32,000 bases of DNA from Acaryochloris thomasi RCC1774 (GTDB lineage: Bacteria; Cyanobacteriota; Cyanobacteriia; Thermosynechococcales; Thermosynechococcaceae): positions 60,001-92,000 of the forward strand of contig NZ_PQWO01000018.1 in NCBI RefSeq assembly GCF_003231495.1, written 5' to 3'. Within the stretch, counting starts at the first letter, position 1. Each line of letters starts with the position of its first letter. Shown here one piece after another: positions 12,547 to 31,383 of the stretch. The notes under the pieces were generated by a model. It did no database searches. It was not told the DNA's origin and saw only the letters and a list, made by a program, of their open reading frames with translations. A program made the position numbers and the translations under genes.

Positions 12547-12673
12547 GTAAATTGTGCTTGTGTATGACTAAAATCAGTCTATCAGTCGCTTTTGGTGGCA
12601 AATGACACAATTCTCGATTCTCTTTTGGGATATAGCAAAGCTGTCGTACATTGCTGCCCCACAGGGCTATCAG

Positions 12674-13691: not shown

Positions 13692-15938
13692 TTAAGGCGA
13701 GGTTAGGGCAACAGAATTCAGCTGAGTATAGGGCAGGGTCAGAACAAAGGTAGCGCCCTCGTTATCAGGGCTGACTGCCGTAAGCTCACCACCATGATTC
13801 TCAACAATTTTACGGCAGATCGCGAGTCCCATGCCGGTTCCTTCATAGTCTGACTGAAGATGAAGACGCTCGAAGGGCGTAAAAATGCGGTCAAGGTATT
13901 GAAGATCAAACCCGATACCGTTGTCTCTAATCTGAATTTCTGCGGCTTGATCGACCTCTACGTAAGACACGGTGATTCGGGGAGGGATGTCAGGACGATG
14001 GAACTTGAGGGCATTACCAATCAAGTTTTGAAAGAGTTGCCGCATTTGCACAGGAGCGGCCTCCAATGAAGGCAAGTGACTCACCTCAACATGCCCAGCC
14101 GTCTTTTCAATCTTCGTCTCTAAATCTGCTAGAACTTCTGTCAGAATTGTGTTGAGATTCACTGAGATAAATGGCTGAACTTTTGTATTCAGTCGAGAGT
14201 AGGCCAGCAAGTCTCGAATCAAAATTTGCATCCGGTTTGCAGCACTCTGCATTCGATTTATAAAGCGTTGTCCTTGCTCATCGAGTTGAGAACTGTACTT
14301 TTTCTGTAGAAGATCGCCAAAAGCTTGAATCTTTCGCAGCGGTTCTTGCAGGTCGTGGGAGGCGACATAGGCAAAATCCTTGAGAGCCTGATTCGAGCGC
14401 TCCAGTTGATGGGCTGTTTTGCGAAGCTGTTGCTCTCGTTCAAGCCGTTCAGCAGCTTCAGCGTGAAGCTGAGTATTGGCCTGTGTCAGCTCTGCTGTGC
14501 GATCTTGAACCCGCTGTTCTAACTCATTTTTTGCAGCCTGTAGTGCTTGTTCTGCCCCCTTCCGCACCGTGATATCAAGAACGAAGGCAATACTCTCTGT
14601 GCGATCGATTCCCAAAAGCACATAGCCAACCAGAACGGGAATTCGACTGCCATCTTTGCGGATATATTCTTTTTCGTAGGGGGTGCAGCTTCCGTTACGT
14701 TGGGCTTCGGCAATGCCAGCATGGTCTTTTGCTAATAACTCAGGGGGGGTTATCTTATCCCAGCGAATTGTCCCGGCCTCCAACTCTTGGCGACTGTAGC
14801 CAATGATCCGCAAGAACTCATCATTGGTTTCTTGAACCTTGCCACTGATATTGCCAAACAGAATCCCGATCAGATCTGACTGCAAAAACTGCCCGATTTG
14901 TTCTTGGGCCTTTCTCAAGACTTGTCTGGTCTCTTGCTGTTGCTTAAGGGTTAATTGCTGATTCGCGATTAACTCGGCATGCTGGATGGCGCTGGCAACC
15001 TGCACTGATAAGTCACTCAATAATTCCTGTTCGACTGCTGACCATCGGTGAGGAGCCTGACAATGGTGCGCGATCAGAAGTCCCCAAAGTTTGGATCCAT
15101 CCATTGATGTCTCTGCGAACAGAATCGGCACGACCAAGTTCGCTTTCACCTGAAACCGCTGCAGCAGATTGAGATGACAAGCAGACAGGTGACTCGACTC
15201 GACATCAGAAATCGCTAGTGTATGGCCCTGTTGATACTTCTCAGCCTGATGACTTTGCTCGCCTTGAAAGCAGTTATCCTCGAGGTGCTGTCCTATGGCT
15301 GCTGTCCACTCTGCCAGGACGGATTCTGCCACGACTGTACCGCTCATATCAGGCTCAAATTGATAAATCAGGATGCGATCGCAACCTAATAACTGACGTG
15401 CTCCATCAGCCGCTGTCTGCAGGATTTGAGGCAGCTCCACCATCCGATTCACGCTCAGCGCGATACGAGTGAGCAGCTCACCTTGCTGACGCTGACGCTG
15501 AAACTGTACCCGTAGATTTCGGGCGGTGACAAGATTCGCAACTGACTTAACTAACTTTTCAGCTGTGAGCTGCCCCTTGATGAAGTAATCTTTTGCGCCG
15601 CTCTTCATTGCCTCTACAGCAGTGGCTTCATCCCCCTGCCCCGTCAAAAGAATAATCAGCGGTAGTAACTCTAGCTGCCGCTTAAGGGCACTCATCAATT
15701 CAAGTCCATCTGTATCAGGCAATAGATAGTCAAGCAAAATAACGTCAGGACAAGTCTGCTGACAAAAGGTGAGAGCCTCTTCTCCTGACCCGCAGTCAAA
15801 GATTTTATAGTCAATTGCTTCTGCAGACTCTAGATATCGACGACTAACAGCTCGGTCAATCTCTGAATCATCCACCAGAAGGATTGTGATGCTTGGAAGT
15901 GAGACAGCCATATTTTCTCTCTGTGAGCTTACTTGCAT
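13692..15938 (-). CDS. hybrid sensor histidine kinase: REC - GAF (cyanobacteriochrome-like, DXCF) - PAS - HisKA - HATPase_c
   Basis: The REC domain reads ILLVDD...VILLDYLLPDTDG...DYFIKG. The GAF domain has DRILIYQFEPDMSGTVVAESV...EDNCF...SACHLNLLQRFQVKANLVVPIL...LWGLLIAHHC. The H-box is YVASHDLQEPLRKI, and the ATPase boxes are NLIGNALKF, RDNGIGF and GTGMGLAICR. Start is ATG 15938; ATG 15911 and TTG 15941 are alternatives. Confidence 0.9.
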   Translation of the reverse strand: MQVSSQRENMAVSLPSITILLVDDSEIDRAVSRRYLESAEAIDYKIFDCGSGEEALTFCQQTCPDVILLDYLLPDTDGLELMSALKRQLELLPLIILLTGQGDEATAVEAMKSGAKDYFIKGQLTAEKLVKSVANLVTARNLRVQFQRQRQQGELLTRIALSVNRMVELPQILQTAADGARQLLGCDRILIYQFEPDMSGTVVAESVLAEWTAAIGQHLEDNCFQGEQSHQAEKYQQGHTLAISDVESSHLSACHLNLLQRFQVKANLVVPILFAETSMDGSKLWGLLIAHHCQAPHRWSAVEQELLSDLSVQVASAIQHAELIANQQLTLKQQQETRQVLRKAQEQIGQFLQSDLIGILFGNISGKVQETNDEFLRIIGYSRQELEAGTIRWDKITPPELLAKDHAGIAEAQRNGSCTPYEKEYIRKDGSRIPVLVGYVLLGIDRTESIAFVLDITVRKGAEQALQAAKNELEQRVQDRTAELTQANTQLHAEAAERLEREQQLRKTAHQLERSNQALKDFAYVASHDLQEPLRKIQAFGDLLQKKYSSQLDEQGQRFINRMQSAANRMQILIRDLLAYSRLNTKVQPFISVNLNTILTEVLADLETKIEKTAGHVEVSHLPSLEAAPVQMRQLFQNLIGNALKFHRPDIPPRITVSYVEVDQAAEIQIRDNGIGFDLQYLDRIFTPFERLHLQSDYEGTGMGLAICRKIVENHGGELTAVSPDNEGATFVLTLPYTQLNSVALTSP

Positions 15939-16306
15939 CAATAAGGCAGTGGCAATAAAAGCTCGAAATCATACCCATTGCATCTACCGTTGGTGACTCA
16001 CCTCGCCATCAGTCTTGGTTACTCGATTACCTTGAAAGATCAAACAACTTTGCTTGCTACCAACCTTAGTACAGGACAAGAGAAAGCGTTAGTCATGGTG
16101 TGTTGTTAAGAACCAGCGGCGAAAAGCCGGCTTTATCTCTCGGTGATGGGTAGATGTATACAGCGTTTTATGTTGGACCTACGAACTCAAAACACCTATT
16201 TGATTTGCTTGAATTACTCCCCGCGTGTCTCGTGTGCTGAAGGCTAATGTTAAATCATTGATCTACGAAGCTAAACCATAGCCTAAATGCGCTGCATCGA
16301 ATATAT

Positions 16307-17830
16307 CTAACCTTTCAAATGTAAATCCACGGCCACACGATGGGCGCAGGCAAACCCAGAAAAAGCCACTGCGTTTAGCCCCTGCCCCGGGAACGTACTG
16401 TCTCCCACGCAGTAAAGCCCTGGAATCGCCGTGCGATTAAACGGCATCCCTAACAAGCCTCGCAATGGACGGCGTGGAATTGGACCATAGGTGCCATCCT
16501 GACGCCCTAAAAATCGACGGTGCGTTTTCGGTGTACCCACCTCCTGTAGATGAATATGCTCCTTTAGGTTGGGGATAATCTGTTCTAGTCGATTAATGAT
16601 TTGGGTCGCAGCCTGCCGTTTTCGCTCCCGATAGTCCGAAGCTGACAAATTCTGCCACTCCTCGATCCAGCTAGGCGTAAAGGCATGCACAATATGATGA
16701 CCTGGAGGAGCCAAGCTCGGATCAAGCACCGTTGGAATGGAGACGAAAGTGGTTCCGCCGGATTCCGTCATCTGTTCCCAGTCCGACAGCAACACATGAT
16801 GACAGTGGATATTCTGGGGCAGTGCCCCAGCCGCGATCCCCAGATGCACGCTCACGAAGCTAGGAGATTTCATATAGCGCTGTCGCCACCTTTCTTCTGT
16901 GGGTGGTACCGTCTCAACTAGTTCACCAAAAGTGTTCCAGCGGGTTGCGTTAGACACAATCCGACGGGCATGAAAGGTCTCTCCTGTCGCTAGCTGGACG
17001 CCCACTGCCTGACCTTTCTCTCGCAAAACTTTGGTCACTCGTGCCTTATATCGAATGGTGCTGCCCGCCGCCTCTAGACCCGCCACAAGCTTCTGAGCAA
17101 TCTGCCCCACTCCGCCCCTCGGATAGTTAACGCCGCCGTAGTGGCGATCGCAAAAGACCATCCCCGCATTCATCATCGGCGTCAAATCTGCTGGAACCAC
17201 CGACCAGCAGAAGCATTCCAGATCGATAAACTTCAGCAAAACCGGATCGCTGAGATAGCGCCGCGCCGTGCGCCCCACATTCTGAGGCAAGAACTTTGCC
17301 AACCGCAGACAGATACCCGGATGCCGCAAAAAGGTCTGCATCAGATAGCGGGGCTCCTCCAGGGACAACAGCTCCATCCCGTTGAGACCGTTGAACACCT
17401 GCCAGAACGCATCATAAAAGCGGCGCAACCCCTGACGCTCATGGGGGAAGCGCTCTATCAGCTCTTGCAAGTATTTCTCATAGTCTCGATGCACCTTAAT
17501 CTGTAAATTATCGGGTAGGTGGTAGTGAATTTGTACGGGGTCAGGAATCGTCTCTAGACGCTGATTGACGCTATCTAAAGCGCGGGTCAATAGATTGGTG
17601 GTCCCCTGCTTGCCAAAGCCGAAAATCATGGAAGCACCGACATCGAAGCAGTAGCCCTCTCTGCGAAAAGAGCCAGCACTGCCGCCCGGAATTAGATATC
17701 GCTCCAATACCAAAACGTGAGCCCCCTTTGCCGCTAATTGAGTGGCTGTAACCAGTCCCCCAATGCCAGAACCAATCACGATCACATCCCACACTGGTTC
17801 AGGGACGGCATGTTCAACAGAGTTCATCAT
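16307..17830 (-). CDS. crtH: carotenoid (prolycopene) cis-trans isomerase, CrtISO/CrtH family FAD oxidoreductase
   Basis: The N-terminal dinucleotide fold WDVIVIGSGIGGLVTATQLAAKGAHVLVLERYLIPGGSAG, then ...FDVGASMIFGFG...TTNLLTRAL...IPDPVQIHYHLP, closely follows cyanobacterial CrtH as I remember it. The C-terminal GLYCVGDSTFPGQG also fits. Confidence 0.85.
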   Translation of the reverse strand: MMNSVEHAVPEPVWDVIVIGSGIGGLVTATQLAAKGAHVLVLERYLIPGGSAGSFRREGYCFDVGASMIFGFGKQGTTNLLTRALDSVNQRLETIPDPVQIHYHLPDNLQIKVHRDYEKYLQELIERFPHERQGLRRFYDAFWQVFNGLNGMELLSLEEPRYLMQTFLRHPGICLRLAKFLPQNVGRTARRYLSDPVLLKFIDLECFCWSVVPADLTPMMNAGMVFCDRHYGGVNYPRGGVGQIAQKLVAGLEAAGSTIRYKARVTKVLREKGQAVGVQLATGETFHARRIVSNATRWNTFGELVETVPPTEERWRQRYMKSPSFVSVHLGIAAGALPQNIHCHHVLLSDWEQMTESGGTTFVSIPTVLDPSLAPPGHHIVHAFTPSWIEEWQNLSASDYRERKRQAATQIINRLEQIIPNLKEHIHLQEVGTPKTHRRFLGRQDGTYGPIPRRPLRGLLGMPFNRTAIPGLYCVGDSTFPGQGLNAVAFSGFACAHRVAVDLHLKG

Positions 17831-18001
17831 TTAGTTGCCCAAAAACGGCCATCGCAGTACCCGGTTAAGGTAGGGCATCCTTGCTATACCGTCAATGAGC
17901 CGTAGCCATTTTTGTACCTTAATCAATACGTGCACGGCTTTACTCACTGGTCTATCGAGAGGTGCCCTTCTGACAAAAATCACAAGTGACTACCCCTGCC
18001 G

Positions 18002-18037
18002 ATAAAAAAGGTCAAAACGCAGAGAGCGCCTTGACCT
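18002..18037 (-). terminator. rho-independent terminator closing the four-gene kinase/GGDEF operon
   Basis: The minus strand reads AGGTCAAGGCGC-TCTCT-GCGTTTTGACCT. This is a 12-bp stem (10 Watson-Crick pairs plus 2 G-U) with a 5-nt loop, followed directly by TTTTTAT. It lies 110 nt downstream of the GGDEF stop. Confidence 0.7.
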
Positions 18038-18147
18038 AGCATGCTGATTCTTCAAGAGAGGAGAACATGACTTCACTGTATAGTTATTGAAAAAGATTGT
18101 CAATAAAAATCAAAAATAGCTTTGCTCGGTCTGTCATCCCTTGGGGG

Positions 18148-19413
18148 TTAGTTGAGAGGTTGGGCTTGATGGGAAGCTATCTGCGCTCGACCTGCTTTTT
18201 TCGCTTGATAGAGGGCGGTATCGGTGGCTGCGATCAATGCTGGGACCGTTAGCTCAGCGGTGGGGACTAGGGTGGAGATGCCAATGCTCAGGGTGATGCG
18301 ATCGCTCACACTAGAAGATTTATGGACCAGTGCTTGCTGATCTAGATCTGCTCTCAACTTCTCTGCCACCGCCATCGCTCCCTCAGAATTTGTGTTGGGT
18401 AAGATGATGGCAAATTCTTCTCCCCCGTAGCGCGCTGCTAAATCTAACGGACGCCTGATGGCCCCGTCAATGGTTTGTGCCACCACCTGCAGGCAGTGAT
18501 CTCCCTGCAAATGACCGTAGGTGTCGTTGTACTGCTTGAAATAATCGATGTCACAGAGCATCAGGGTCAAAGCTTTCTGATCCCTCACTGCCTGCTTCCA
18601 AGACTGTTCAAGATACTCATCAAAGCGGCGTCGATTGGCCAGCTTTGTTAAGCCATCCTGATTGGCAGCCAATGCTAACTGGCGATTCAACTGATCGAGT
18701 TCTTGATTGGCAAGATCGAGGGCCTTATTGATTGCCTGTAGCTTTTCTTGGGTTTTAAGGCGGGCCTGGATTTCTGCTTCTAGCTGCTGATTCTTTGCCT
18801 CTAACTCTCGTGTGCGAATTTTGACGGACTCTTCTAGATTTCGGTTAAAATCCTGCAGCTTTTCATTGAGGCTGGCAATCTCCCGGCGATCTTCTTCAGC
18901 CGTGATAATGTCCCGGTAGGAACGGATCGCCGTAACTAATGTCGAGAATAATTTCTGCTGCGTTAGCTCAGTCTTGGTTCTATAGTCATTGATATCGTAC
19001 CCCTTGATGATTGAGATCTCAGGCACTTCGCCCGGCTGGCCGGTTCGCAGAATGATGCGCACAAATAAATTGTGCAAGTTCTCACGGATATATTTGACCA
19101 ACTCTAGACCGGCCTGACTGGTTTCCATGACCACGTCAAGGAGCAATACGGCAGTATCGGGGTGCTGGCTCAGCATCGCTTGAGCTTCTTGCCCAGAGTA
19201 AGCAGAGATGATTTCTAAGGTCCTGTTCTCAAAAGTAAAATTTTTGAGCGCAAGGCGGGTGACCTCATGTACCTGTCTTTCGTCATCGACAACAAGTATT
19301 TTCCAGGGCGTTTCGCTGTTGCTGGCAGCGGTGTCTTGGTCGTCCGAGAATAGAGGCTCATCTTCAAAGTCAAGGCGTTCATTGGCAGTGACTGAATCGT
19401 TAGACTGAGGCAT
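18148..19413 (-). CDS. response regulator-diguanylate cyclase (REC - coiled coil - GGDEF)
   Basis: The REC domain reads ILVVDDE...VLLLDVVME...DYRTK. A long heptad-rich linker follows (EKLQDFNRNLEE...LEAKNQQLEAEIQARLKTQEKLQ...). The GGDEF domain has RYGGEEFAIIL and an RPLD (RxxD) I-site five residues upstream. Confidence 0.92.
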   Translation of the reverse strand: MPQSNDSVTANERLDFEDEPLFSDDQDTAASNSETPWKILVVDDERQVHEVTRLALKNFTFENRTLEIISAYSGQEAQAMLSQHPDTAVLLLDVVMETSQAGLELVKYIRENLHNLFVRIILRTGQPGEVPEISIIKGYDINDYRTKTELTQQKLFSTLVTAIRSYRDIITAEEDRREIASLNEKLQDFNRNLEESVKIRTRELEAKNQQLEAEIQARLKTQEKLQAINKALDLANQELDQLNRQLALAANQDGLTKLANRRRFDEYLEQSWKQAVRDQKALTLMLCDIDYFKQYNDTYGHLQGDHCLQVVAQTIDGAIRRPLDLAARYGGEEFAIILPNTNSEGAMAVAEKLRADLDQQALVHKSSSVSDRITLSIGISTLVPTAELTVPALIAATDTALYQAKKAGRAQIASHQAQPLN

Positions 19414-20674
19414 GGGTTCCCTCGTCTGTAATCTGTAAGGGTAAGTTCAGAATAAACTTGCTTCCTGAGCCTAAGGTGCTTTCACACCGGATGGTGCCCC
19501 GAAGGTTTTGCGTCACAATGTTGTGAACAATATGGAGCCCCAAGCCACTACCGCCGCGCTCTCGAGCAGTTGTGAAGAACGGCTCAAAAATCTTTGCTTG
19601 GTGGCTCTCAGAGATACCACACCCATCATCGGCGTACTCTAAGATCACCTGCTCTTCTTGCTGATGCAATGAAAAACTGAGGTGCCCCTGCTCTCCTGGG
19701 CCATAGGCATGTCGTGTAGAGTTGATCACCAAGTTTGTCACAATCTGAGAAAGCGCTCCAGGATAACTTACCATCTTCAGCGAAATATCTCCGTCAACGG
19801 TCGTTTGGTGTTTTGTGGCCTTAAGGTGAGGCTCTAGGCTAGTGAGCACACTGTTGATATAGGGGATGATTGTAAAGGGTCGCTTCTCAAAACTGGTCTG
19901 ATCTACGGCAACTTGCTTGAAGCTTTGAATAAGCTGGGCTGCTCTGTCAAGGTTGCTCAATACGAGACGACTACTATCTGCTGCAGTTTCGAGATAGCCA
20001 GAAAGGGTTGAACGCTTTAAGCTACCTTGCTTATAGAGCTCGTCGAAGGCTTGTGTTTCATTCTGCAGCACGGACGCTGCCAAGAGGGCGTTGCCGACGG
20101 GAGTATTGATCTCATGGGCGACACCCGCTACAAGCTGGCCCAGGGCTGCCATTTTCTCCGACCGGATTAGCTCTGTCTGGGTTTCCTGTAGCTCCTGTAG
20201 GGTTTGGGTTAACTCACGGGTTCGTGCCTGTACCTTTTGCTCTAGCTGGTGCTGATACTCATAGAGCTGTTGCTCTTGGATATAGCTGTTGAGTGCTTCT
20301 CGCACAGTGAGCTGCAGGTCGGCAGGCTGCCAGGGTTTGGCGATATATCGATAGAGCTGAGCTGTATTAATCGCATTGGTTATCCCATCTACCCCTGCTT
20401 GCCCCGTTAGCATCACGGTTAGGGTTTTGGGTGAGAGTTCGTTGACCTGTCGCAGCACCTCGTCACCCTTTAGATCGGGCATCAGATAGTCAGCAATGAT
20501 GACAGCCACATTGCACTGGTCCTGCACTAAATCTTTGACAAGTTCAACGGCTTCTACGCCCCCAACTGCGGTTTCTAGCTCATAGCTCTCCTCAAAGACT
20601 TCAGAAAGCTCTCGCCGCAGACTATCAAGAACGGCGGGTTCGTCATCAACGCACACGATCACAGGTTTTGACAT
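19400..20674 (-). CDS. hybrid histidine kinase with N-terminal receiver (REC - HisKA - HATPase_c), no other sensor domain
   Basis: The REC domain reads VIVCVDDEPAVL...VIIADYLMPDLKG...IAKPW. The H-box is SEKMAALGQLVAGVAHEINTPVG, and the ATPase boxes are VTNLVINSTRHA, DDGCGI and GGSGLGLHIV. Its 3' end overlaps the GGDEF start by 14 nt. Confidence 0.92.
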   Translation of the reverse strand: MSKPVIVCVDDEPAVLDSLRRELSEVFEESYELETAVGGVEAVELVKDLVQDQCNVAVIIADYLMPDLKGDEVLRQVNELSPKTLTVMLTGQAGVDGITNAINTAQLYRYIAKPWQPADLQLTVREALNSYIQEQQLYEYQHQLEQKVQARTRELTQTLQELQETQTELIRSEKMAALGQLVAGVAHEINTPVGNALLAASVLQNETQAFDELYKQGSLKRSTLSGYLETAADSSRLVLSNLDRAAQLIQSFKQVAVDQTSFEKRPFTIIPYINSVLTSLEPHLKATKHQTTVDGDISLKMVSYPGALSQIVTNLVINSTRHAYGPGEQGHLSFSLHQQEEQVILEYADDGCGISESHQAKIFEPFFTTARERGGSGLGLHIVHNIVTQNLRGTIRCESTLGSGSKFILNLPLQITDEGTHASV

Positions 20675-20677
20675 GGA

Positions 20678-21070
20678 TTACTGGGGAAGGGCCGATTGAA
20701 TTGCTTGAATTAAGTCCTGCTCTTGCCAAGGCTTTGCTAGGCAGGTATGGAGGTTCGCTTGATCATGAGCTCGCTCAACCGCGTCGTGATCAGCTTGCCC
20801 TGTCAACATAATTTTAACCACGCCGGGGAAACGCTGATGGACGTCAATCAGGAGTTCGTCGCCTTTGGCTCCCGGCATTAGCCAATCAGACACGATCACT
20901 AATAGATCTGTCCCTTCGCCCTGGAGTTCTTCGATAATTTCTAGGGCTTCGCTGGCATTCTCTGCCGTTTCGTAGAGATAGGTATCATCGAAGGCTGTCT
21001 GGAGCTGTCGCAGTAGGCTATTGAGGATGATCGCTTCGTCATCAACGCAAAGAATCGCTAGTTTAGACAT
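20678..21070 (-). CDS. single-domain response regulator (CheY-like REC)
   Basis: 130 aa reading ILCVDDEAIILNSL...LVIVSDWLMPGAKG...IMLTGQAD...LAKPW. Its start overlaps the upstream stop by 8 nt, and its stop is 3 nt from the next start. Confidence 0.92.
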   Translation of the reverse strand: MSKLAILCVDDEAIILNSLLRQLQTAFDDTYLYETAENASEALEIIEELQGEGTDLLVIVSDWLMPGAKGDELLIDVHQRFPGVVKIMLTGQADHDAVERAHDQANLHTCLAKPWQEQDLIQAIQSALPQ

Positions 21071-24000
21071 GATGGTTTCCGGGTTGAGGATTCATGGGTA
21101 AAGACACGATGAAGGTCGTCTGCGAGGGTATCGATTCAAAGGTGATGGTGCCTTGATGCTTATCGATGATCTTTTTGACAATATCGAGTCCCAGTCCGCT
21201 GCCTTCGCCAGGGGGCTTGGTTGTAAAGAAAGGCTCAAAAATGTTCGCTTGGACCTCTGGAGGGATGCCACTACCGCTGTCGGTGATTTTTACCTGTGCG
21301 CTGCCGCCGAGTTCCTGCAGGCTGACCTCCAATGTGCCTTTGTAGTCCATGGCCTGTAGGGCATTGTGAATCAGATTCGTCCACACTTGGTTGAGTTCAT
21401 CGGCATAGCACTTTACGGGAGGGATGGCATCGAGGCTACGAATTACTGTGACGCCGTGCTTGATTTGGTTCTGGTAAAGGGTGAGGACGGCTTCAATGCC
21501 ATCTGTAAGGTTGACCGTCATCATTTCGCCGCTGTGGTCGTAGCGGGCGTAGGTTTTGAGGGCAAACACGATCTTGGCGGCGCGATCGCTAGCGCTGTTG
21601 ATGTCTCGGGCGCTCTCTTGCACCCGCGTAAATTGACGCGCCATTTTTAGAAGCGGTTCGCTACTCGGATTTGTCAGCAAGGGCAGTAGGGCATCGAGAT
21701 CGCTGTAGATGTTCAGGTCAATAAGCAAGCTAGCCAGATCGCTGGCGTTTGCAATTTCATGGTGGCCCAGTTGCTTGGCTAGGTTTTTGCGTGCTTGACG
21801 ACGCTCCCGCCCTGAGAGCTTGGTGGTTGACTGGAGCGATCGCTGGAGCAGGCTTTGAAACTGCTGCTCTTGTTCTGGGGAGAGGGTTCGAAAGAAGTGG
21901 GGGAGCGTTTGTAGGTTGTTGTGCAAGAAGTTATTGATGTACTGAATAGAGGAGCCAATGGCACCCAGGGGCGTATTAATCTCGTGGGCGATACCGGCAA
22001 TAAGCTGTCCCAGAGCGGCCATCTTTTCGGACTGAACCAGTTCTTGTTGAGTGAGCTGTAGTTCTTTGACGGTTTGAGAAAGGGTTTGGGTACGCTCATC
22101 GACTTTTTGCTCTAGGTTGGCGTAGAGACGAGCGTTGTCAATTGCGATCGCAACCTGTCCCGACAGCAGCTGCAGTAGTTCTAATCGATCGGGGGTAAAA
22201 GCACTGGTGGTTAAATTATTTTCCAGATAGACCATCCCACTGAGCTGTCCCAGGTTGAGGAGTGGCATACACAAAATTGACTGGGTCTGTCGCTCTTTGA
22301 TGTAGGGATCTTGAGTGAAATCACCGGCTTGACTGGCATGGGATAAAACCACGCTCTCCTGCGTGCGGTTGACGTAGTTCAATAGCGTCTGAGGAACTTG
22401 CCCCACTATCGGTGTGGACTGGAGGACGCTATAGGTCTCAGACTCGGTGTTGGCAGAGGCCTCAATCAGGAGACCGTCGCTGTTAAGAATGAGATAGCCA
22501 ACCTGGGCACCGGCATTGCGCACCAGGATTTGAATGAGAGTCATCAACAATTTGTCGAGGACAATCTCCGTTGAGATGGCCTGAGATGCCTGCAGAACAG
22601 TGGCTAAATCTAGCGATTGGCTGGTACGAACGGTGTGAGTTGCTGTGGAAGAAGAAGAAGGTCCCGATGCCGTTGTGAAGACTGCCTTAGAAAGGTTAGG
22701 GTACTGCTGTTCTAGCTGCTCGACCTTTGCGGTTGCCCCCCACCGGAAGTAGCCATAGTAGGCATCTTTCAAATAGACCTGGGCAATCTTGTCTCGATTT
22801 TGCCGCTGGTAGAACTGAGCTGCAAGTTCATTCGCAAGCGCTTCTTCTTGAGGGTAGTCGTGGGCTTGGGCCGATGTGATCGCATGATCATAGGCCACCC
22901 CTGCCTCTGCTATTTGTCCTAAACAGCGATAGCGTTCTGCTTCGACTAGCTCATATTTATGCCGGTGGTTCTCTGGGGCATGTTCAGCCCACTGCTGCAG
23001 CTGTTGCTGGTTGGCATTGACCTGCTCTAGTGCCTGCTGCTGCTCCGATTCATAAAGGTGCTCAAAACGGGCCAGCCGAGTTAAAGAGTCATAGAAGTTC
23101 AGCACGGCAATGGTGTAGGCGGCGGTCATTCCATCGGCGTTGTTTTCTGCCAACTGTGTACAGCTTAAAGCGGTTTCGTAGTCCGCCAGTAAATAGCAGA
23201 GCATTGCTTTATGCGTGTAGAAGAAGGCCAGAGCCAGTTTGTTGTCGGCACTCTCCACCGTGACCTCGGCTTCCTGGAGAAATTCTCCGTTGAGTTTGCT
23301 TAGGTCAGAGGCTTGGCCTCTGAGGTTTGCGAGGGTCTGCTGATAAATCTTCAGGTATAGATGGCAGGCGGCTTGCTTTAGGGTTGCGATCGCAAAATTA
23401 TAGGCAGCCATCCGAGTCGCTAACGCTTCTAGTTCTCGACCCGTGAGTAGACTGTGCATGGACTCCCAGCAGAGCGAGTAGCAGGCATATTCCACATCGC
23501 CTGTGTCCAAGCCGATTTGATAGCCGCTGTGAAGATCGGCAATCGTAGCGCTGAGCGGATCCTCCCAGTGACGCACAAACGCATTGAAGACAAACATTAC
23601 CCGACTTTTCGCCTGCTTGGCCTCGAACTTATCCACCACCTGCAGCGCCAAGCGCCCAAACTGGTAGCCCGAAGCAATATCGCCCACCGCCCCGCACAGC
23701 GTGATGCCGTAGCAGTCATAGGCAAAAGCCGAAGCTGCTGTATTGCCATACTCTAACGAGAGTCGAATTTGGGTGAGGTTGCTGAGAATAAACCGTTCAA
23801 AAGCGGCCTGATAGCCAGAAGATAAAATGTCCGATAAAATCTGCATTGCCGCCAGCTTTTCAGGATCCGTCATCGCAGGCAAATCAATCAAACCTTCGAT
23901 GGAGCGCTGATGCTGTAGAGCCTGAGTTCGCTGTAGCTCAAGCTGTAAATTTTCTGGCGTCGGTTCCGGGAACTGAATGCCTAGCTGCCCTAAAATTTCA

Positions 24001-26534
24001 AAACCAATATCGGTTGCTTCAAAATGTCGATTCTGAGACGAACAGGCCAGAATCTTCACCCGATAGACTTTGACTTTATCTAGAACACAGCGGGCCTTCT
24101 GCAGAATGATTGCCGTTAGCTGCTCTTGCTTTTCGTAGTCCTGATTCAGATAGGCCGCCTCACTGGCCGCCTCATAAAGCCCCAGGGCTAATTCATAGGT
24201 GTTTTGCCAGCCATCCGGTCCTAAAAGCGTCACCCCTGTTAGTAGATAGTTCATCGCAGCTTGGTAAGCGGTTGCCGACTTCGCCTTCTGACCCGCCTGA
24301 AAATTGAGCTGCGCTAACTGCTGTCGTTCAGCCGGTTCAGAGATCAGATCGAGTGCTTGATTGAGATGATCCACGACCTCAAAGATGCGGTCTGCCAGAC
24401 CTTCTTGGGTCACGCCGTCTCTGAGCAGACGACCAATACGGAGATGAACCGGTGCTTTTTGTTCTGGGGTAATCAGGGCATAGGCAGCCTGCTGGATGCG
24501 GTCATGGCCGAAGCGAAAGCGTTCAATTGTTAAATCTGCTGTCAATTCAGACAGGGGAATCACTAAACCACACTGAATCGTCGGCTTGAGATCAGCAAAA
24601 ACGGTTTTGAAAGACTTCTGTTGAATAATGGCAAGGGTCGCCAGATCAAACTGAGCGCCGACGCAGGCCGCCAGCCGCAGTCCTTCTTGGGTGGCGCTTG
24701 ACAGCTTCTGGAGTTTGCCAATCAGCAGCTCAATGACGTTATCGGTCAAATCTTGGGCCTGAATCTGCTCCATGTCCCATTCCCAGAGGCGGGATGCTTC
24801 ATTAAACTGCAGCAGTCTTTCACTGTGGAGACTCTTGAGAAATTCGTTGACGAAAAAGGGATTGCCTTCTGTTTTCTGAAGCACTAATTCCGCGAGGGGA
24901 TCTAGTTCAGCCTGACTGTGCTGCAGTGTATCCGTGATTAGCTGACTGAGGTGCGTCAGCGATAGGGGGGCCAGGGTAATCGTATTGACTGTCACACTCT
25001 GGGTCTCAAAGTGGTTTAACAGGCTCATTAATGGATGCGCCGCACTGACTTCATTGTCACGGTAGGCACCGATCACAAGCAGCGATCGCATCTTACTATC
25101 GGTCATCATTCGCTGCATCAGCTTCAGGCTGGCAGAATCAGCCCACTGCAAATCGTCTAGGAACAGCACTAGCGGATGCTCGGGATCACAGAAAACCCGA
25201 ATGAAACTTTGAAAAACCAGATTGAAGCGGTTTTGAGCCTCTGTTGGACCCAGCTCTGGTACCGGGGGCTGCTTTCCTGTAATCAGAGCTATTTCAGGGA
25301 TCACATCAATGACCACCTGACCGTTTGGTCCCAAAGCTGCTAGCAAGCGCTGCCGCCACTGGGCTAGCTGGGTCTCGCTTTCCGTTAAAAGCTGTTTGGC
25401 AAGGCTGCGAAAGGCAGCAATCACTGCGGAGTAGGGCACATCCCGCTGAAACTGGTCATATTTACCGGCGATGAAGTAGCCGCGCTTCTCGGTAATGGGC
25501 TTATGGACCTCCGCCACTAGAGAAGACTTGCCAATCCCGGAATACCCTGCCACCAGCATTAATTCGCTGGTGCTGGTGGATTGGCTGATGCGCTCGAAAG
25601 CCGCCAGCAATATTGCTTTCTCGGCCTCTCGCCCATAGAGCTTTTGTGGAATCTGGAAGCGACCGGATAAATCTTGAGTGCCGAGGACGAAAGGTGCAAT
25701 CTTACCTGTGCTGCGTAACTGCTCTCGGCAGTTTTCCAAATCAGCCTGGAGGCCCGCCGCGTTCTGATAGCGGTCCTCAGCCGTTTTAGCCATCAGCTTC
25801 AGCGTCAGATTAGACAAGACCTGCGGCACCGCAAGATTAATTTGATGCGGTGGCTTGGGTTGATGGGCAATATGACAGTGAACCAGTGCCAAAGCATCTT
25901 CGGTCGGGAATGGTAACTGCCCCGTCAGCAGCTCATAGAATGTAATGCCGAGAGAATAGAAGTCCGTTCGGTAGTCTAGGGAGCGATTCATCCGTCCGGT
26001 TTGCTCCGGTGACAGATAGGCCAGCGTGCCTTCTAATACCCGTGGGTTTTTGAGGGTGGGGTTCTCACGGCTCAACTGGGTTGAAATCCCAAAGTCGATG
26101 ATTTTAAGCTGTCCTGAGGCTGGGTTGACAATGATATTGCTGGGATTAATATCTTTGTGAATGACGTTACGGCTGTGAATATGCCCCAGGATTTCGACAA
26201 TCTTGAGAGCTAAATCTAGAAACTCCTCCAGCGGCACTGCCTGCCCTTGGAACCACTCTTTGAGGGATTGCCCTCCAATGTCTTCGAGCACCATCGCTAA
26301 AGTGCGCTGATAGGGTTCTAACCCATAAACCTGAACTGTACCTTCGATGTCAAGATTGCTCGTGATTTCATATTCTTGGCGATAGCGGGTCAGTTCGGCC
26401 GAGGTGGGATAGTCTTCTTTCAAGATTTTGATAATGACAGGCTGATCAGGGTCGCCTCGATGACCCCGATAGACTAATGAATTCGCGCTCTCATAAATGT
26501 GCTTAGTCAAATTACAGCCGACAACACCCGTCAT
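21063..26534 (-). CDS. multidomain Ser/Thr protein kinase - P-loop NTPase (AAA_16/STAND-like) - TPR-like helical region - GAF - histidine kinase (HstK-like dual kinase)
   Basis: The STK motifs are VIIKILK (beta3 Lys), HKDINPSNIIV (catalytic loop), IDFGIS and AYLSPEQ. Walker A is VAGYSGIGKSSLV and Walker B is LVLFLDDLQWAD. About 700 aa of helical repeats follow. The GAF region ends ...LCMPLLNLGQLSGMVYLEN. The H-box is SEKMAALGQLIAGIAHEINTPLG, and the ATPase boxes are WTNLIHNALQAM, DSGSGI and EGSGLGLDIV. Confidence 0.93.
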   Translation of the reverse strand: MTGVVGCNLTKHIYESANSLVYRGHRGDPDQPVIIKILKEDYPTSAELTRYRQEYEITSNLDIEGTVQVYGLEPYQRTLAMVLEDIGGQSLKEWFQGQAVPLEEFLDLALKIVEILGHIHSRNVIHKDINPSNIIVNPASGQLKIIDFGISTQLSRENPTLKNPRVLEGTLAYLSPEQTGRMNRSLDYRTDFYSLGITFYELLTGQLPFPTEDALALVHCHIAHQPKPPHQINLAVPQVLSNLTLKLMAKTAEDRYQNAAGLQADLENCREQLRSTGKIAPFVLGTQDLSGRFQIPQKLYGREAEKAILLAAFERISQSTSTSELMLVAGYSGIGKSSLVAEVHKPITEKRGYFIAGKYDQFQRDVPYSAVIAAFRSLAKQLLTESETQLAQWRQRLLAALGPNGQVVIDVIPEIALITGKQPPVPELGPTEAQNRFNLVFQSFIRVFCDPEHPLVLFLDDLQWADSASLKLMQRMMTDSKMRSLLVIGAYRDNEVSAAHPLMSLLNHFETQSVTVNTITLAPLSLTHLSQLITDTLQHSQAELDPLAELVLQKTEGNPFFVNEFLKSLHSERLLQFNEASRLWEWDMEQIQAQDLTDNVIELLIGKLQKLSSATQEGLRLAACVGAQFDLATLAIIQQKSFKTVFADLKPTIQCGLVIPLSELTADLTIERFRFGHDRIQQAAYALITPEQKAPVHLRIGRLLRDGVTQEGLADRIFEVVDHLNQALDLISEPAERQQLAQLNFQAGQKAKSATAYQAAMNYLLTGVTLLGPDGWQNTYELALGLYEAASEAAYLNQDYEKQEQLTAIILQKARCVLDKVKVYRVKILACSSQNRHFEATDIGFEILGQLGIQFPEPTPENLQLELQRTQALQHQRSIEGLIDLPAMTDPEKLAAMQILSDILSSGYQAAFERFILSNLTQIRLSLEYGNTAASAFAYDCYGITLCGAVGDIASGYQFGRLALQVVDKFEAKQAKSRVMFVFNAFVRHWEDPLSATIADLHSGYQIGLDTGDVEYACYSLCWESMHSLLTGRELEALATRMAAYNFAIATLKQAACHLYLKIYQQTLANLRGQASDLSKLNGEFLQEAEVTVESADNKLALAFFYTHKAMLCYLLADYETALSCTQLAENNADGMTAAYTIAVLNFYDSLTRLARFEHLYESEQQQALEQVNANQQQLQQWAEHAPENHRHKYELVEAERYRCLGQIAEAGVAYDHAITSAQAHDYPQEEALANELAAQFYQRQNRDKIAQVYLKDAYYGYFRWGATAKVEQLEQQYPNLSKAVFTTASGPSSSSTATHTVRTSQSLDLATVLQASQAISTEIVLDKLLMTLIQILVRNAGAQVGYLILNSDGLLIEASANTESETYSVLQSTPIVGQVPQTLLNYVNRTQESVVLSHASQAGDFTQDPYIKERQTQSILCMPLLNLGQLSGMVYLENNLTTSAFTPDRLELLQLLSGQVAIAIDNARLYANLEQKVDERTQTLSQTVKELQLTQQELVQSEKMAALGQLIAGIAHEINTPLGAIGSSIQYINNFLHNNLQTLPHFFRTLSPEQEQQFQSLLQRSLQSTTKLSGRERRQARKNLAKQLGHHEIANASDLASLLIDLNIYSDLDALLPLLTNPSSEPLLKMARQFTRVQESARDINSASDRAAKIVFALKTYARYDHSGEMMTVNLTDGIEAVLTLYQNQIKHGVTVIRSLDAIPPVKCYADELNQVWTNLIHNALQAMDYKGTLEVSLQELGGSAQVKITDSGSGIPPEVQANIFEPFFTTKPPGEGSGLGLDIVKKIIDKHQGTITFESIPSQTTFIVSLPMNPQPGNHHV

Positions 26535-26889
26535 TCATCTGTCCTTAAACGCCGAAAGAGTATCTGGCCTCAGCAAAGCTATGGATATTTGGCGTTGAGA
26601 TCGCAGTCTTTTTGATCAGACTTAGCTAAACTCTCCGTGCAAATACTGAATTAGCAGGCCAGCTCTATAGTGGACGGCTGAAGCAGCAAACCTGACATCT
26701 AAGTCTACTTTTGTGATGTTGCCATGACGAAGTATTGAGCTGAATCTGTAAATTCTCTCAATTCGTTGGCGTTACGGCGATCAAGAGGGACTGAATAAAC
26801 GGCATGCTGCCCGTCAGAAACGACAGTCTGTTAAACAAACAAGCGACCTTTACAACTGTTTGAATTCGGGGAACAGAGACAGGGGAAAT

Positions 26890-26993
26890 TTTTCGATCAA
26901 GATTGCTCAGAGACTGGGAACACTGAGTTTGAGAAACGGCACCTCAACGATTTTGACGATTGTGAGATTCACAAGACCCTAGTTTTCGATCAA
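26890..26993. promoter_or_regulatory. candidate operator-like direct repeats (TTTTCGATCAA x2) in the divergent kinase-operon/LOX intergenic region
   Basis: The identical 11-mer TTTTCGATCAA occurs at 26890-26900 and 26983-26993, 93 bp apart, 48-151 bp upstream of the LOX ATG. A third CGATCAAG lies at 26778-26785. The evidence is sequence repetition only. Confidence 0.25.
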
Positions 26994-27040
26994 AGATGTG
27001 CCTCTGCTTTCTTCTGTTTCCCAACGTGAGTAACTGATAC

Positions 27041-29029
27041 ATGCCCTCATCTTTTACAGCCCTGAATACTGAGTCTCTGAATGTTGTTCAGCCACCTGTG
27101 CCGGCTCTAAAGAAAACAGAGGCTCATCCTGAGCCTGTCCCCCACGCTCTCAGGACTGCTCGCAAAAAATATAAGTACAACTACGCCCATATTGCGCCAG
27201 TCGCGATGGTAGACAAGCTGCCGCGCGAGGAGAGACCCAGTCTGGTCTGGTGGAGAAAGGTGATTCGGGTCATGCTCGAAATCTTTATCAACGCCATCGT
27301 TAGCAAGCGAGGTCATGTTGAAGAAGTACAGGCCCGTCACCATGTCGCCCACCTCGTCAGACAAACGGTGATCGATATCTTTCAGCAGGCAGATTTCAAA
27401 ACGAAACTTCGGCTGGGTTGGCATCTGCTCAGAGCAGTTCCCCAACTCCTTTGGAAGGGATTCAGGTTGGGACTGCATGAGTGGGAAGATCTGGTTCTGA
27501 GTCTGATTTCAGAGGTCGAGAAAGATATTCTGCTGGCGCTCCACGGCGGCGTCAAGGCTCGCGTTGATCAAGACCGCCACTGTGTGACAGCCACGAGTCT
27601 GGAGGACTACAACAGGCAGTTTGCCACGATTGCACTACCTGCGATCGCAACTCATTTCCAAGAAGATGAATACTTCGCCTACCTACGGATAGCGGGTCCC
27701 AATCCTACGATGCTTGAGCAGGTCCGCGTTTTGTTTGGCGACATCCTCAGCCAAAAATTTCCGGTGACAAACGATCACTATCAAGCCGTCATGGGCACTG
27801 ATGATTCCCTGGAGAAAGCTTTAGAAGAGAGCCGCCTCTACATTGCGGACTACGCCATTCTGGCAGGAGCTATCAATGGCACCTATCCTGGCACCCACCC
27901 CAAATATATTGAAGCGCCTCAGGCGCTATTTGCTGTCCCTCGGGGCGGTTCCGCATCACGAAACCTGCGGCCCATTGCGATTCAGTGTGGTCAGGTTTCG
28001 GGTACGAACGTACCAATTGTGACGCCCTCGACGAACGAATCCGAGCGATACGCTTGGGAAATGGCCAAGGCTGTGGTTCAGGTGGCCGATAGCAACTACC
28101 ACGAAGCCATTGCCCACTTAGGTCGCACGCATCTGTTTATTGGCCCCTTTGCGATCGCAACCCATCGGCAACTTCTGCCGGAGCATCCCCTTAGTGTTCT
28201 ACTGCGCCCGCACTTTGAGGGCATGCTCAACATCAATGATGGGGCTCAAAATCTGCTTATGGCTCCCCGAGGTGGCGTTGATAAGAATTTGGCGGCTACG
28301 ATTGACTGCGCGCGCGCAGCGACTGTCGCTGGCTTGCAGAGCTACGGCTTCAATAGCGCCATGCTGCCCAAACGGCTTGAGCAGCGCGGTGTTGCCGATC
28401 TAGAGGCATTCCCGGTCTATCCTTACCGCGATGATGCCCTTTTACTGTGGGATGCCATCAAAGACTGGGTTGCGGCTTACCTCGGTCTTCATTACCAAGA
28501 CGATACCGCAGTCCAGCAGGATCAGGCGCTCCAGAACTGGGCAGCAGAGCTGATTGCCTTTGATGGCGGTCGCGTCGTTGACTTCGGTGAAGACGGTGAG
28601 ATTCGGACTCTCTCATACCTGATTGATGCGGTGACGTTAATCGTTTTTACTGCCAGCGCCCAACATGCTGCTGTCAACTTTCCGCAGGGAGATGTGATGA
28701 CCTACGCTCCGGCGATGCCTCTGGCAGGATATGCTCCGGCTCATCCGCTCACCACCGCTAGCGAAGCAGATTATTTTGAGCAGCTTCCGCCGCTGCATCA
28801 GGCACAGGGACAGCTTGAGCTGACCTATCTGCTAGGACAGGTCTATCACACGGTACTGGGTCAGTATGACTTGGGCTGGTTTCGTGACGGGCAAGAGCAG
28901 AGCGCCCTCCAAGACTTTCAAGAGAGATTGGTGGAGATTGAAGATGCGATCGCAACCCGTAACCAAACCCGTCCCTATCCCTACTGCTATCTGCAGCCTT
29001 CCAAAATCCCCCAAAGCATCAATATTTAA
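27041..29029 (+). CDS. lipoxygenase (non-heme iron fatty-acid dioxygenase), bacterial type without obvious PLAT domain
   Basis: The LOX motifs are YAWEMAKAVVQVADSNYHEAIAHLGRTHL (WxxAK; His354-x4-His359), SAQHAAVNFPQ (His542-x3-Asn546) and a C-terminal ...KIPQSINI ending in Ile, the C-terminal carboxylate iron ligand. An in-frame TGA lies 6 nt upstream of the ATG. Confidence 0.9.
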   Translation: MPSSFTALNTESLNVVQPPVPALKKTEAHPEPVPHALRTARKKYKYNYAHIAPVAMVDKLPREERPSLVWWRKVIRVMLEIFINAIVSKRGHVEEVQARHHVAHLVRQTVIDIFQQADFKTKLRLGWHLLRAVPQLLWKGFRLGLHEWEDLVLSLISEVEKDILLALHGGVKARVDQDRHCVTATSLEDYNRQFATIALPAIATHFQEDEYFAYLRIAGPNPTMLEQVRVLFGDILSQKFPVTNDHYQAVMGTDDSLEKALEESRLYIADYAILAGAINGTYPGTHPKYIEAPQALFAVPRGGSASRNLRPIAIQCGQVSGTNVPIVTPSTNESERYAWEMAKAVVQVADSNYHEAIAHLGRTHLFIGPFAIATHRQLLPEHPLSVLLRPHFEGMLNINDGAQNLLMAPRGGVDKNLAATIDCARAATVAGLQSYGFNSAMLPKRLEQRGVADLEAFPVYPYRDDALLLWDAIKDWVAAYLGLHYQDDTAVQQDQALQNWAAELIAFDGGRVVDFGEDGEIRTLSYLIDAVTLIVFTASAQHAAVNFPQGDVMTYAPAMPLAGYAPAHPLTTASEADYFEQLPPLHQAQGQLELTYLLGQVYHTVLGQYDLGWFRDGQEQSALQDFQERLVEIEDAIATRNQTRPYPYCYLQPSKIPQSINI

Positions 29030-30783: not shown

Positions 30784-31383
30784 ATGATGGCGATGGCAGC
30801 ACCGAAAACGAAGACCTACACGGCTGAGGAATATCTAGAGCTGGAGATCACGTCTGAGGTTCGCAGCGAATTCCGGGATGGAGAGATTGTTGAGATGACG
30901 GGTGGCACCCCTGCACACAATGAAATTACACGGATGCTTATTTTCTTGCTGACAATGGCGCTGCGCAAGCAGCCATACAGCATTTTTGTCACCGATCAGC
31001 GTCTCTGGTTGCCGGACTGCAATCTCTATACTTACCCCGATGTGATGGTGATGCCCCGTCCGCCGAAGCTTCAGACTGGGCGAAAGGATACGGTGATGAA
31101 TCCGATTTTTATAGCTGAGGTCTTATCAGAATCTACTCAGGGATATGACCGAGGTGATAAGTTCTCAGCCTATCGGACAGTTGCAACGTTTGAAGAGTAT
31201 TTGCTAATTGATCAATATCAGCCACGGGTAGAGCATTACGCGCGGCAGGAGGCAAATAAATGGTTACTCACGGTTCATGATAGGCCGGAGGCTAGGGTGT
31301 CTTTGGTGTCTGTGCCGGTGGAGTTAGAGCTTGCTGAGCTATATGAGAACTTGGAGTTTGGTGAGTCGTTGGATAATGCCTGA
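30784..31383 (+). CDS. Uma2-family (DUF820) PD-(D/E)xK-like endonuclease
   Basis: The typical Uma2 N-terminus YTAEEYLELE...SEFRDGEIVEMTGGTPAHNEI is present, then ...YPDVMVM...PIFIAEVLSEST...DRGDKFSAYRT...EEYLLID. The start could be any of three ATGs at 30784, 30787 or 30793. Confidence 0.8.
   Translation: MMAMAAPKTKTYTAEEYLELEITSEVRSEFRDGEIVEMTGGTPAHNEITRMLIFLLTMALRKQPYSIFVTDQRLWLPDCNLYTYPDVMVMPRPPKLQTGRKDTVMNPIFIAEVLSESTQGYDRGDKFSAYRTVATFEEYLLIDQYQPRVEHYARQEANKWLLTVHDRPEARVSLVSVPVELELAELYENLEFGESLDNA

Follow-up and report, generated by a model that had tools for sequence, protein, structure and literature searches.

We analyzed a 32,000-nucleotide (nt) stretch of the genome of the cyanobacterium Acaryochloris thomasi RCC1774 (contig NZ_PQWO01000018.1, positions 60,001 to 92,000; hereafter the window), in which four closely packed minus-strand genes encode an HstK-type kinase (gene 1), a stand-alone receiver (gene 2), a receiver-controlled histidine kinase (gene 3), and a response-regulator diguanylate cyclase (gene 4). 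We propose, with a probability of about 0.58, that these genes are one operon encoding a two-tier phosphorylation cascade that would end in cyclic di-GMP (c-di-GMP) synthesis. The argument has three parts: (i) a single operon is favored because the genes overlap or abut, one hairpin lies downstream, and gene order and tight junctions are kept in relatives; (ii) the components appear competent because the kinase boxes, the GGEEF and RxxD motifs, and the receiver pockets are all complete; and (iii) transfer from the kinase of gene 1 (HK1) to the receivers of genes 2 and 3 (R1 and R2), and from the kinase of gene 3 (HK2) to the receiver of the cyclase (R3), is supported because the class of the dimerization and histidine phosphotransfer (DHp) domain matches the class of the adjacent receiver across loci. 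Coordinates are collected in Table 1.

An earlier note on this DNA had described four minus-strand genes joined by an 8-nt overlap, a 3-nt gap, and a 14-nt overlap, and direct reading of the sequence placed all of them at exactly the claimed coordinates. Genes 1 and 2 overlap in ATGTCTAA, genes 2 and 3 are joined by TAA-tcc-ATG, and genes 3 and 4 overlap in ATGCCTCAGTCTAA, with a GAGG about 8 nt upstream. Where the strong terminator had been claimed (18002-18037), a terminator-like hairpin with a 12-bp stem (6 GC) runs from 18037 to 18009 and is followed by the T-run TTTTTTAT, and its stem is the longest among the terminator-like sites of the region, but such sites are common there (19 in 11 kb versus 9.8 +/- 3.5 in shuffled sequence). 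Because terminator-like matches are so frequent in the region, the hairpin by itself is weak evidence. Our promoter search on the minus strand of 26535..27040 identified no element and no convincing sigma-70-like site, and Rfam at gathering thresholds gave no match in the whole window, and hence neither a c-di-GMP riboswitch nor a leader RNA beside the operon or the divergent lipoxygenase gene.

The survey of gene order across relatives that the earlier note had proposed found the order retained at HstK identities of 65-80%. For this comparison close orthologous loci were gathered singly; the matches listed in a scan of species-representative genomes were paralogue-level loci (40-53% identity), with no close orthologue among them. 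The four-gene order is kept in L167, L001, and L083, whose HstK proteins are 80%, 67%, and 65% identical to that of gene 1, and the junctions are equally tight: overlaps of 8, 4, and 14 nt in L167; a 4-nt overlap, a 5-nt gap, and a 14-nt overlap in L001; and an 8-nt overlap, a 5-nt gap, and a 19-nt gap in L083. Farther away, L086 (HstK 54% identical) has the order HstK, receiver, receiver-PAS-nucleotide cyclase. L087 (41% identical) has a different order: R3-GGDEF, an HstK gene with a type A core (core types are defined below), R1, and an R2-kinase with a type B core, plus an R3 hybrid kinase. Since L087 carries all four components, reordered, the four-component set is older than the gene order.

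The sampled kinase cores fall into motif classes, and HK1 and HK2 belong to different ones. Type A cores have HE(I/V)NTPLGAI, a loop of about 107 residues, and the alpha2 motif DRAxK(I/V)(I/V)FALK; type B cores have HEINTP(V/I)G, a 30-residue loop, and the alpha2 motif NL(D/N)RAAxLIQSFKQVAVDQ; several further DHp classes exist beside these two. HK1 is of type A. Its HisKA match (residues 1508-1565; 20.8 bits) is below the 26.9 cut-off, and its H-box HEINTP (1517-1522) is intact; the phospho-acceptor His1517 (nt 21984-21986), in HEINTPLGAI, is invariant in 16 homologues, and alpha2 reads DRAAKIVFALKTYARYD. In gene 3, Pfam found a receiver (REC, 6-124), HisKA (178-236), HATPase_c (307-414), and no other domain. 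HK2 has a type B DHp domain with His187 (nt 20114-20116), the alpha2 sequence NLDRAAQLIQSFKQVAVDQ, and a complete catalytic ATP-binding (CA) domain. All five boxes (H, N, G1, F, and G2) are retained in both kinases. The near-identical N-terminal halves of the two DHp alpha1 helices were considered as a sign of heterodimerization or recent duplication; we rejected both, as SEKMAALGQL-AG-AHEI is common to most sampled kinases and the two cores are unlike in loop length, in alpha2, and in the residues that follow the His. Gene 3 thus combines the architecture, the acceptor Asp in the receiver, and the DHp His of a Rec-controlled kinase. Its orthologues are 64-70% identical, with Asp62 and His187 invariant in three, and the linker between receiver and DHp, EQQLYEYQHQLEQKVQARTRELTQTLQELQETQTELIRSEKMAALGQL, is helical and heptad-like by eye only.

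In an AlphaFold2 (AF2) model spanning residues 1480-1823 of gene 1, the HK1 core (pLDDT 82), a compact five-helix module sits at the tip of the DHp hairpin (residues ~1544-1621, nt 21672-21905; pLDDT 82-93). In a Foldseek search the solved kinases ZraS, HK853, LvrB, and CckA aligned to the canonical part of the core only (TMq ~0.40), and no solved histidine kinase covered the insertion. This module is a hallmark of type A cores, the kinases accompanied by an R1 and R2 pair. We considered an Hpt-like domain for it and rejected the idea, as it has no conserved histidine.

All three receivers match D12/D13/D57/T87/K109 of CheY in an alignment to CheY, and their pockets are complete. Gene 2 is a receiver only (Pfam Response_reg, 4.9e-16), with acceptor Asp62 (nt 20885-20887) and pocket D10/D11, D62, T90, and K113; it has the stand-alone form and the complete acceptor pocket of a sink-type receiver. 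The R2 acceptor in gene 3 is also Asp62 (nt 20489-20491). The gene 4 pocket is D43/D44, D93 (nt 19135-19137), T124, and K147, and its REC match in Pfam reaches only 33.7 bits. The CheY switch residue Tyr106 is replaced by Cys in R1 (residue 110 of protein 2), and R2 and R3 have Tyr. The R1 genes of L001, L083, L167, L086, and L078 likewise have Cys at this position, and that of L007 has Phe. In a neighbor-joining tree of all receivers from the loci, R1 (with members from L001, L083, L086, L078, L079, and L007) and R2 were sister clades and R3 formed a separate clade. The alpha1 signatures agree with this division: (I/V)L(N/D)SL follows the DDE motif in R1 and R2, and VHxxT is found in R3. Receivers of the R3 class are elsewhere fused to cyclases or kinases. 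R1 stays 52-68% identical even where HstK is only 39-46% identical.

The output domain of gene 4 is a GGDEF domain (Pfam, 2.4e-52) with GGEEF at residues 330-334 (nt 18412-18426), the motifs DGLTKLANRR and DIDYFKQYND, and an RPLD I-site at 321-324 (nt 18442-18453), five residues before GGEEF. It has the complete receiver pocket, the GG(D/E)EF site, and the RxxD spacing of a response-regulator cyclase. Between receiver and GGDEF domain lies a linker of about 90 aa, coiled-coil-looking by eye only. None of the four operon proteins, nor the neighboring cytochrome P450, reached an equivalog or subfamily cut-off in NCBIfam; only the generic GGDEF domain model passed, and the best match of gene 4, the PleD family, was below its cut-off.

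We used two samples of loci to ask which receivers accompany which kinases. The first comprised at least 80 loci picked by Ser/Thr kinase and NTPase motifs alone, and hence independently of DHp and receiver sequence (Nostocales, Microcoleus, Chloroflexota, and Parabeggiatoa), and was annotated with home-made domain profiles. Counts for this sample are among the matches listed. For most HstK-type genes no receiver gene was recognizable beside them (47 of 57 had no R1-, R2-, or R3-class receiver downstream). A minority precede a Rec-kinase, a receiver and a receiver-cyclase, or a Rec-kinase and a REC-GGDEF gene (L061), and elsewhere R1 and R2 form a tandem downstream of HstK genes: R1, then R2 fused to a cyclase, kinase, or hybrid kinase. 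R1 plus R2 lay downstream of three of the four type A HstK genes and of none of the 53 others (Fisher p = 1.4e-4, ignoring kinship), and R3 lay downstream of all six type B genes and of none of the 51 others (p = 2.8e-8, with the same disregard of kinship). The second sample comprised metagenome contigs picked by R2-like receiver motifs, and so samples R2-like receivers rather than gene 3 orthologues. Here an R1 gene stood directly before the R2-output gene in 43 of 72 cases, and a type A kinase preceded R1 in 25 of the 33 with a readable upstream gene. The R2 fusion partners were kinases (40), hybrid kinases (13), nucleotide cyclases (15), and GGDEF domains (3), and the triad of type A kinase, R1, and R2-output was seen behind diverse sensors (GAF-GAF-HK, plain HK, and Rec-HK, beside the HstK genes of the first sample). 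R1 shares with its sister clade R2 both the alpha1 signature and a place behind type A kinases. The wiring put forward in the earlier note, from HK1 to the HK2 receiver and from HK2 to REC-GGDEF with the single receiver sharing HK1, is a prediction from sequence that finds comparative support in these patterns.

Gene 1 had more than 8000 scored homologues in one search, and since the best match, a protein of 1822 aa from a marine cyanobacterial metagenome-assembled genome (MAG), is 96% identical over the full length, the long open reading frame (ORF) is real. Homologues are annotated as 'trifunctional serine/threonine-protein kinase/ATP-binding protein/sensor histidine kinase'. Pfam and motif positions recovered the parts that had been listed beforehand for gene 1 (Ser/Thr kinase, Walker A/B NTPase, GAF, and a histidine kinase core with no receiver), and Pfam agreed on a stand-alone receiver, a kinase whose only input is a receiver, and a receiver-GGDEF protein as the remaining products. 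The protein has the N-terminal Hanks-type kinase, the GAF domain, and the C-terminal HisKA and HATPase_c domains with acceptor His that characterize HstK-type (cbSTKIII) kinases. Its Ser/Thr kinase retains K36, E54, HKD (126-128), N133, DFG (147-149), and SPE (175-177), and is 30% identical to PknB in an alignment starting at VAVK; PknB chains of the PDB also match the full protein. The glycine-rich loop GxGxxG is replaced by YESANSLVYRG (residues 14-24, nt 26463-26495). This loop and the residues just named vary little or not at all among 16 homologues reaching down to 50% identity. Conservation of this kind points to an atypical but functional nucleotide site and not to decay, and the domain is probably catalytically competent. 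The earlier description of it as apparently active is thus plausible only: HKD, DFG, and SPE are kept, but the glycine-rich loop is not.

The middle of gene 1 resembles a MalT-like STAND module. Walker A (GYSGIGKSS, residues 330-338, nt 25521-25547) and Walker B (LFLDDLQW, residues 457-464, nt 25143-25166) are present. Pfam found no TPR or other family in residues 560-1320, yet the long TPR-like region expected there was borne out by an AF2 model (pLDDT 88.7, pTM 0.80) in which about 30 paired helices come after a winged-helix-like part, and for which Foldseek returned from the PDB TPR proteins, the STAND-TPR protein 6mfv, and MalT domain III (1hz4, TMt 0.67). With its Walker A/B NTPase, winged helix, and helical-repeat sensor in that order, gene 1 can be read from these models as a fusion of a Ser/Thr kinase, a MalT-like STAND module, GAF, and a histidine kinase core. 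The same Ser/Thr kinase-NTPase-TPR-GAF chassis is also found ending in a class III nucleotide cyclase instead of the histidine kinase (L015, L022, L023, L032, L044, L048, L051, L056, L062, and L077), often as tandem paralogues and including loci from Chloroflexota MAGs, and with a hybrid HK-REC end.

We propose that the cascade would run as follows. Gene 1 would be a soluble HstK-type sensor whose MalT-like STAND module and GAF domain integrate cytoplasmic signals and control autophosphorylation of His1517 in the type A core. Phosphorylated HK1 would then donate to the paralogous receivers R1 (Asp62) and R2 (Asp62), a step with comparative support, and R1 may compete for or modulate flux, as a sink or as a regulator. 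By analogy with LvrB, phosphorylation of R2 would turn on HK2 through the helical linker, with autophosphorylation of His187. Phosphorylated HK2, with its type B core, would donate to Asp93 of R3, again with comparative support. The GGEEF cyclase would be activated in turn, probably through linker-mediated oligomerization as in WspR/PleD-type enzymes, with product feedback likely at the RPLD I-site. The Ser/Thr kinase would contribute either a further output or an input for autoregulation.

Instead of a passive sink, R1 could be a DivK-like allosteric partner that binds the type A DHp insertion and gates or stimulates transfer to R2, which we hold to be unlikely but the strongest of the alternatives. 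With DivK there is already an example of a single-domain receiver that controls kinases allosterically. The restriction of the five-helix insertion to type A cores, those with the R1 and R2 pair, would suit such a partner, as would the Cys in place of the Tyr switch and the strong conservation of R1 where HstK has diverged. The insertion could, however, serve dimer stability or another purpose, and the equivalent single receiver of the Lhf system is dispensable and was described as a sink (PMC6879726). That R1 docks on the insertion is speculation.

Several observations weigh against the two-tier cascade as proposed. In L002 and L084, whose HstK proteins are 61-62% identical to gene 1, a receiver gene is found upstream, and neither the Rec-kinase nor the cyclase gene adjoins HstK. 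The adjacency statistics carry no phylogenetic correction, and two pairs of loci, L007/L079 and L042/L066, are closely related; R2-like motifs were also the basis on which the second sample was chosen. The gene 1 Ser/Thr kinase has no glycine-rich loop, which makes its activity uncertain. The second tier is not obligatory, as R2 is fused directly to a GGDEF domain or cyclase after a type A kinase in L130, L147, L086, and L007. Finally, in L061, which has a different DHp class, the receivers of Rec-HK and REC-GGDEF are sisters, so that a branched rather than serial layout would fit there.

One alternative is a single-tier branched system, in which HK1 phosphorylates all three receivers and HK2 acts mainly as a phosphatase or as an independent second input on the cyclase receiver. 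One kinase with several receivers is a common arrangement, the type A kinases of L130 and L147 adjoin R2-GGDEF with no second kinase, and the sister receivers of L061 point the same way. The cyclase receiver in the window is R3, however, and not R2; its alpha1 signature differs from that of R1 and R2, and in the first sample R3 stood only beside type B cores, never beside type A alone (6/6 versus 0/51, among the matches listed). We regard this layout as unlikely here.

A phosphorelay offers another path through the same four proteins, from HK1 to R1, on to His187 of HK2 acting like Spo0B, and then to the GGDEF receiver, with the HK2 receiver only regulatory. RedCDEF of Myxococcus includes a kinase-like protein with a part in a relay of this sort. 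R1 almost always lies between the type A kinase and the R2-output gene, and the operon has no Hpt domain, so that a DHp domain would have to serve. Two facts make the relay very unlikely: the ATP-binding domain of HK2 is complete (N, G1, F, and G2), unlike that of Spo0B-type transferases, and R1 also precedes R2-cyclase and R2-GGDEF genes (L086, L007, and L147), which have no histidine to take the phosphate, so relaying cannot be its general role. Least probable are two insulated systems in one operon, HK1 with R1 and HK2 with REC-GGDEF, the HK2 receiver being fed by a kinase encoded elsewhere: cyanobacterial genomes have many orphan kinases, and a further Rec-containing kinase (13692-15941) is encoded downstream of gene 4, at a distance of about 2.2 kb, but R2 and R1 are sister clades that share their alpha1 signature, and in most sampled loci a type A kinase lies two genes upstream of R2.

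The components of the proposed two-tier cascade all have described counterparts. The earlier note had stated that HstK-type dual kinases are known by name in Anabaena, and the family is indeed described: HstK, Pkn41, and Pkn42 of Anabaena PCC 7120 are cbSTKIII 'dual protein kinases', a family defined to include at least one GAF domain between the Ser/Thr kinase and the histidine kinase, with about a dozen HstK-type kinases listed for Anabaena (PMC2176072). Gene 1 shares their chassis of N-terminal Ser/Thr kinase, AAA_16 NTPase, GAF, and C-terminal HisKA/HATPase. In the literature searched, the Anabaena proteins come with expression data only (nitrogen source, iron, NtcA) and no named partners, whereas gene 1 has a full downstream pathway.

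Cascades from a histidine kinase to a Rec-HK and on to a response regulator have been characterized in the Lvr (PMC13269768) and Lhf (PMC6879726) systems. In the Lvr pathway of Leptospira, LvrA phosphorylates the receiver of LvrB (Rec-DHp-CA), which then phosphorylates LvrC; once the LvrB receiver is phosphorylated, the linker helices assemble into a coiled coil and the catalytic domains are released (PMC13269768). Gene 3 resembles LvrB in its Rec-linker-DHp-CA architecture, in having no other sensor, and in its place between an upstream kinase and a response regulator. LvrB was among the structural matches of the HK1 core; it was absent from the PDB sequence matches to gene 3 at E <= 1e-10. 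The Lvr output is an anti-sigma factor rather than a diguanylate cyclase, and the stand-alone receiver and the HstK-type top kinase are extra in A. thomasi. The Lhf cluster of Rhodopseudomonas palustris comprises the sensors BphP2/BphP3, the dispensable sink LhfD, the 42-kDa Rec-HK LhfE (His185), and the output LhfA (PMC6879726). It gathers the same four roles in one cluster, and His185 of LhfE compares with His187 of gene 3; unlike in the operon, its sensors are bacteriophytochromes and its output is a transcription factor. We considered R1 as a homologue of LhfD (RPA3017) and rejected this, as RPA3017 was not among the PDB sequence matches.

On the output side, CdgK and CdgS (All2875-All2874) of Anabaena PCC 7120 are co-transcribed, and diguanylate cyclase activity rises when the receiver Asp is phosphorylated (PMC9927289). 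They resemble the operon as a cyanobacterial kinase with a REC-GGDEF response regulator, but CdgK, which is not of the HstK type, is a hybrid kinase of CHASE-PAS-GAF build that contains a REC-REC-Hpt relay, and it works without a separate Rec-HK tier. As far as sequence can tell, the likeness of the operon to Lvr, Lhf, and CdgK-CdgS is architectural and not orthologous. Gene 4 follows WspR and PleD in its succession of REC, helical linker, and GGDEF domain, in which an RxxD I-site precedes GGEEF by five residues; it has one receiver where PleD has two, a long linker, and a receiver of the R3 class.

The surroundings of the operon are listed with its features in Table 1. The orthologues of the divergent lipoxygenase and P450 genes in relatives are 57-71% and 47-66% identical, respectively. 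The pair is divergent upstream of the HstK locus in the window, L001, and L083, and lies downstream on the same strand in L167; the P450 gene alone is downstream in L002 and L084. L001 has a second lipoxygenase gene (17613-19637), only 43% identical to that of the window, and a second REC-GGDEF gene (16517-17569) after its operon, with a receiver of a different class. In L086 an inserted Uma2 gene (12514-13077) separates HstK from its receiver gene. The receiver of the downstream kinase at 13692-15941 showed no R1, R2, or R3 sequence signature by eye, and nothing else in the window is obviously connected to the operon.

Table 1. Features of the operon and neighboring genes (positions in the window)
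Feature	Position	Strand	Description	Basis
Gene 1	21063..26534	minus	ATG start; 1823 aa; HstK-type 'trifunctional' kinase	ORF list and Pfam
Ser/Thr kinase domain (gene 1)	25770..26483	minus	residues 18-255	Pfam Pkinase 1.2e-36
AAA_16 / STAND NTPase module (gene 1)	25071..25643	minus	residues 298-488	Pfam AAA_16 2.1e-43; nSTAND1 weak
Winged-helix-like part and long paired-helix (TPR-like, MalT-type) sensor array (gene 1)	22680..24857	minus	residues ~560-1285	AF2 and Foldseek
GAF domain (gene 1)	22140..22559	minus	residues 1326-1465	Pfam GAF 1.3e-15
Type A DHp (gene 1)	21540..22067	minus	residues ~1490-1665	motif classes and AF2 model
HK1 catalytic ATP-binding domain (gene 1)	21090..21404	minus	residues 1711-1815; N, G1, F, G2 boxes	HATPase_c 2.1e-24
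Gene 2	20678..21070	minus	ATG start; 130 aa; stand-alone receiver R1	ORF list and Pfam
Gene 3	19400..20674	minus	ATG start; 424 aa; Rec-controlled histidine kinase, R2 receiver	ORF list and Pfam
Gene 4	18148..19413	minus	ATG start; 421 aa; response-regulator diguanylate cyclase, R3 receiver	ORF list and Pfam
Terminator-like hairpin and T-run	18009..18037	minus	111 nt past gene 4 stop codon	scan and direct reading
Divergent intergenic region	26535..27040	.	506 bp, common to lipoxygenase gene; presumed operon promoter region	
Lipoxygenase gene	27041-29029	plus	divergent from operon	
Cytochrome P450 gene	29067-30614	plus	divergent from operon	
Uma2-family (putative restriction endonuclease-like) gene	30784-31383	plus	after P450	
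Amine-oxidase/FAD gene	16307-17830	.	between gene 4 and the 13692-15941 kinase	
REC-GAF-PAS-HisKA-HATPase_c kinase	13692-15941	minus	749 aa; ~2.2 kb downstream of gene 4	

The adjacency of the lipoxygenase and P450 genes may hint at the signal (oxylipins or lipid oxidation), or may be plain synteny in a narrow clade. A bolder reading, which we consider quite unlikely, is that the type A core, the Cys-switch R1, and the R2-output protein are a distinct and widespread cassette in which R1, docking on the DHp insertion, gates flow to R2, and that in this lineage the STAND/TPR/GAF sensor monitors lipoxygenase-P450 products and so couples oxylipins to c-di-GMP.

The gene 1 family, Rec-controlled kinase cascades, sink receivers, and kinase-to-REC-GGDEF pairs are all already described, and HstK-type kinases were reportedly described in 2001. 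Our literature search, whose coverage was incomplete, returned no study giving an HstK-type kinase its partners, signal, or output, and no description of the type A, R1, and R2 cassette or of the four-gene combination. The operon combination and the conserved cassette appear uncharacterized in the literature searched. Together with the rule that DHp class predicts the class of the adjacent receiver, the operon would provide a concrete path, testable at low cost, from an HstK-type kinase to a measurable output, c-di-GMP. It would also be a test case for the effect of a stand-alone receiver on flux through a cascade with a Rec-controlled kinase, a class whose mechanism of activation was solved recently with LvrB, for what a Ser/Thr kinase and a STAND NTPase contribute to a histidine kinase, and for the role of the DHp insertion. 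The architecture will not surprise a specialist; what the locus offers is to make the question of what HstK kinases talk to directly testable.

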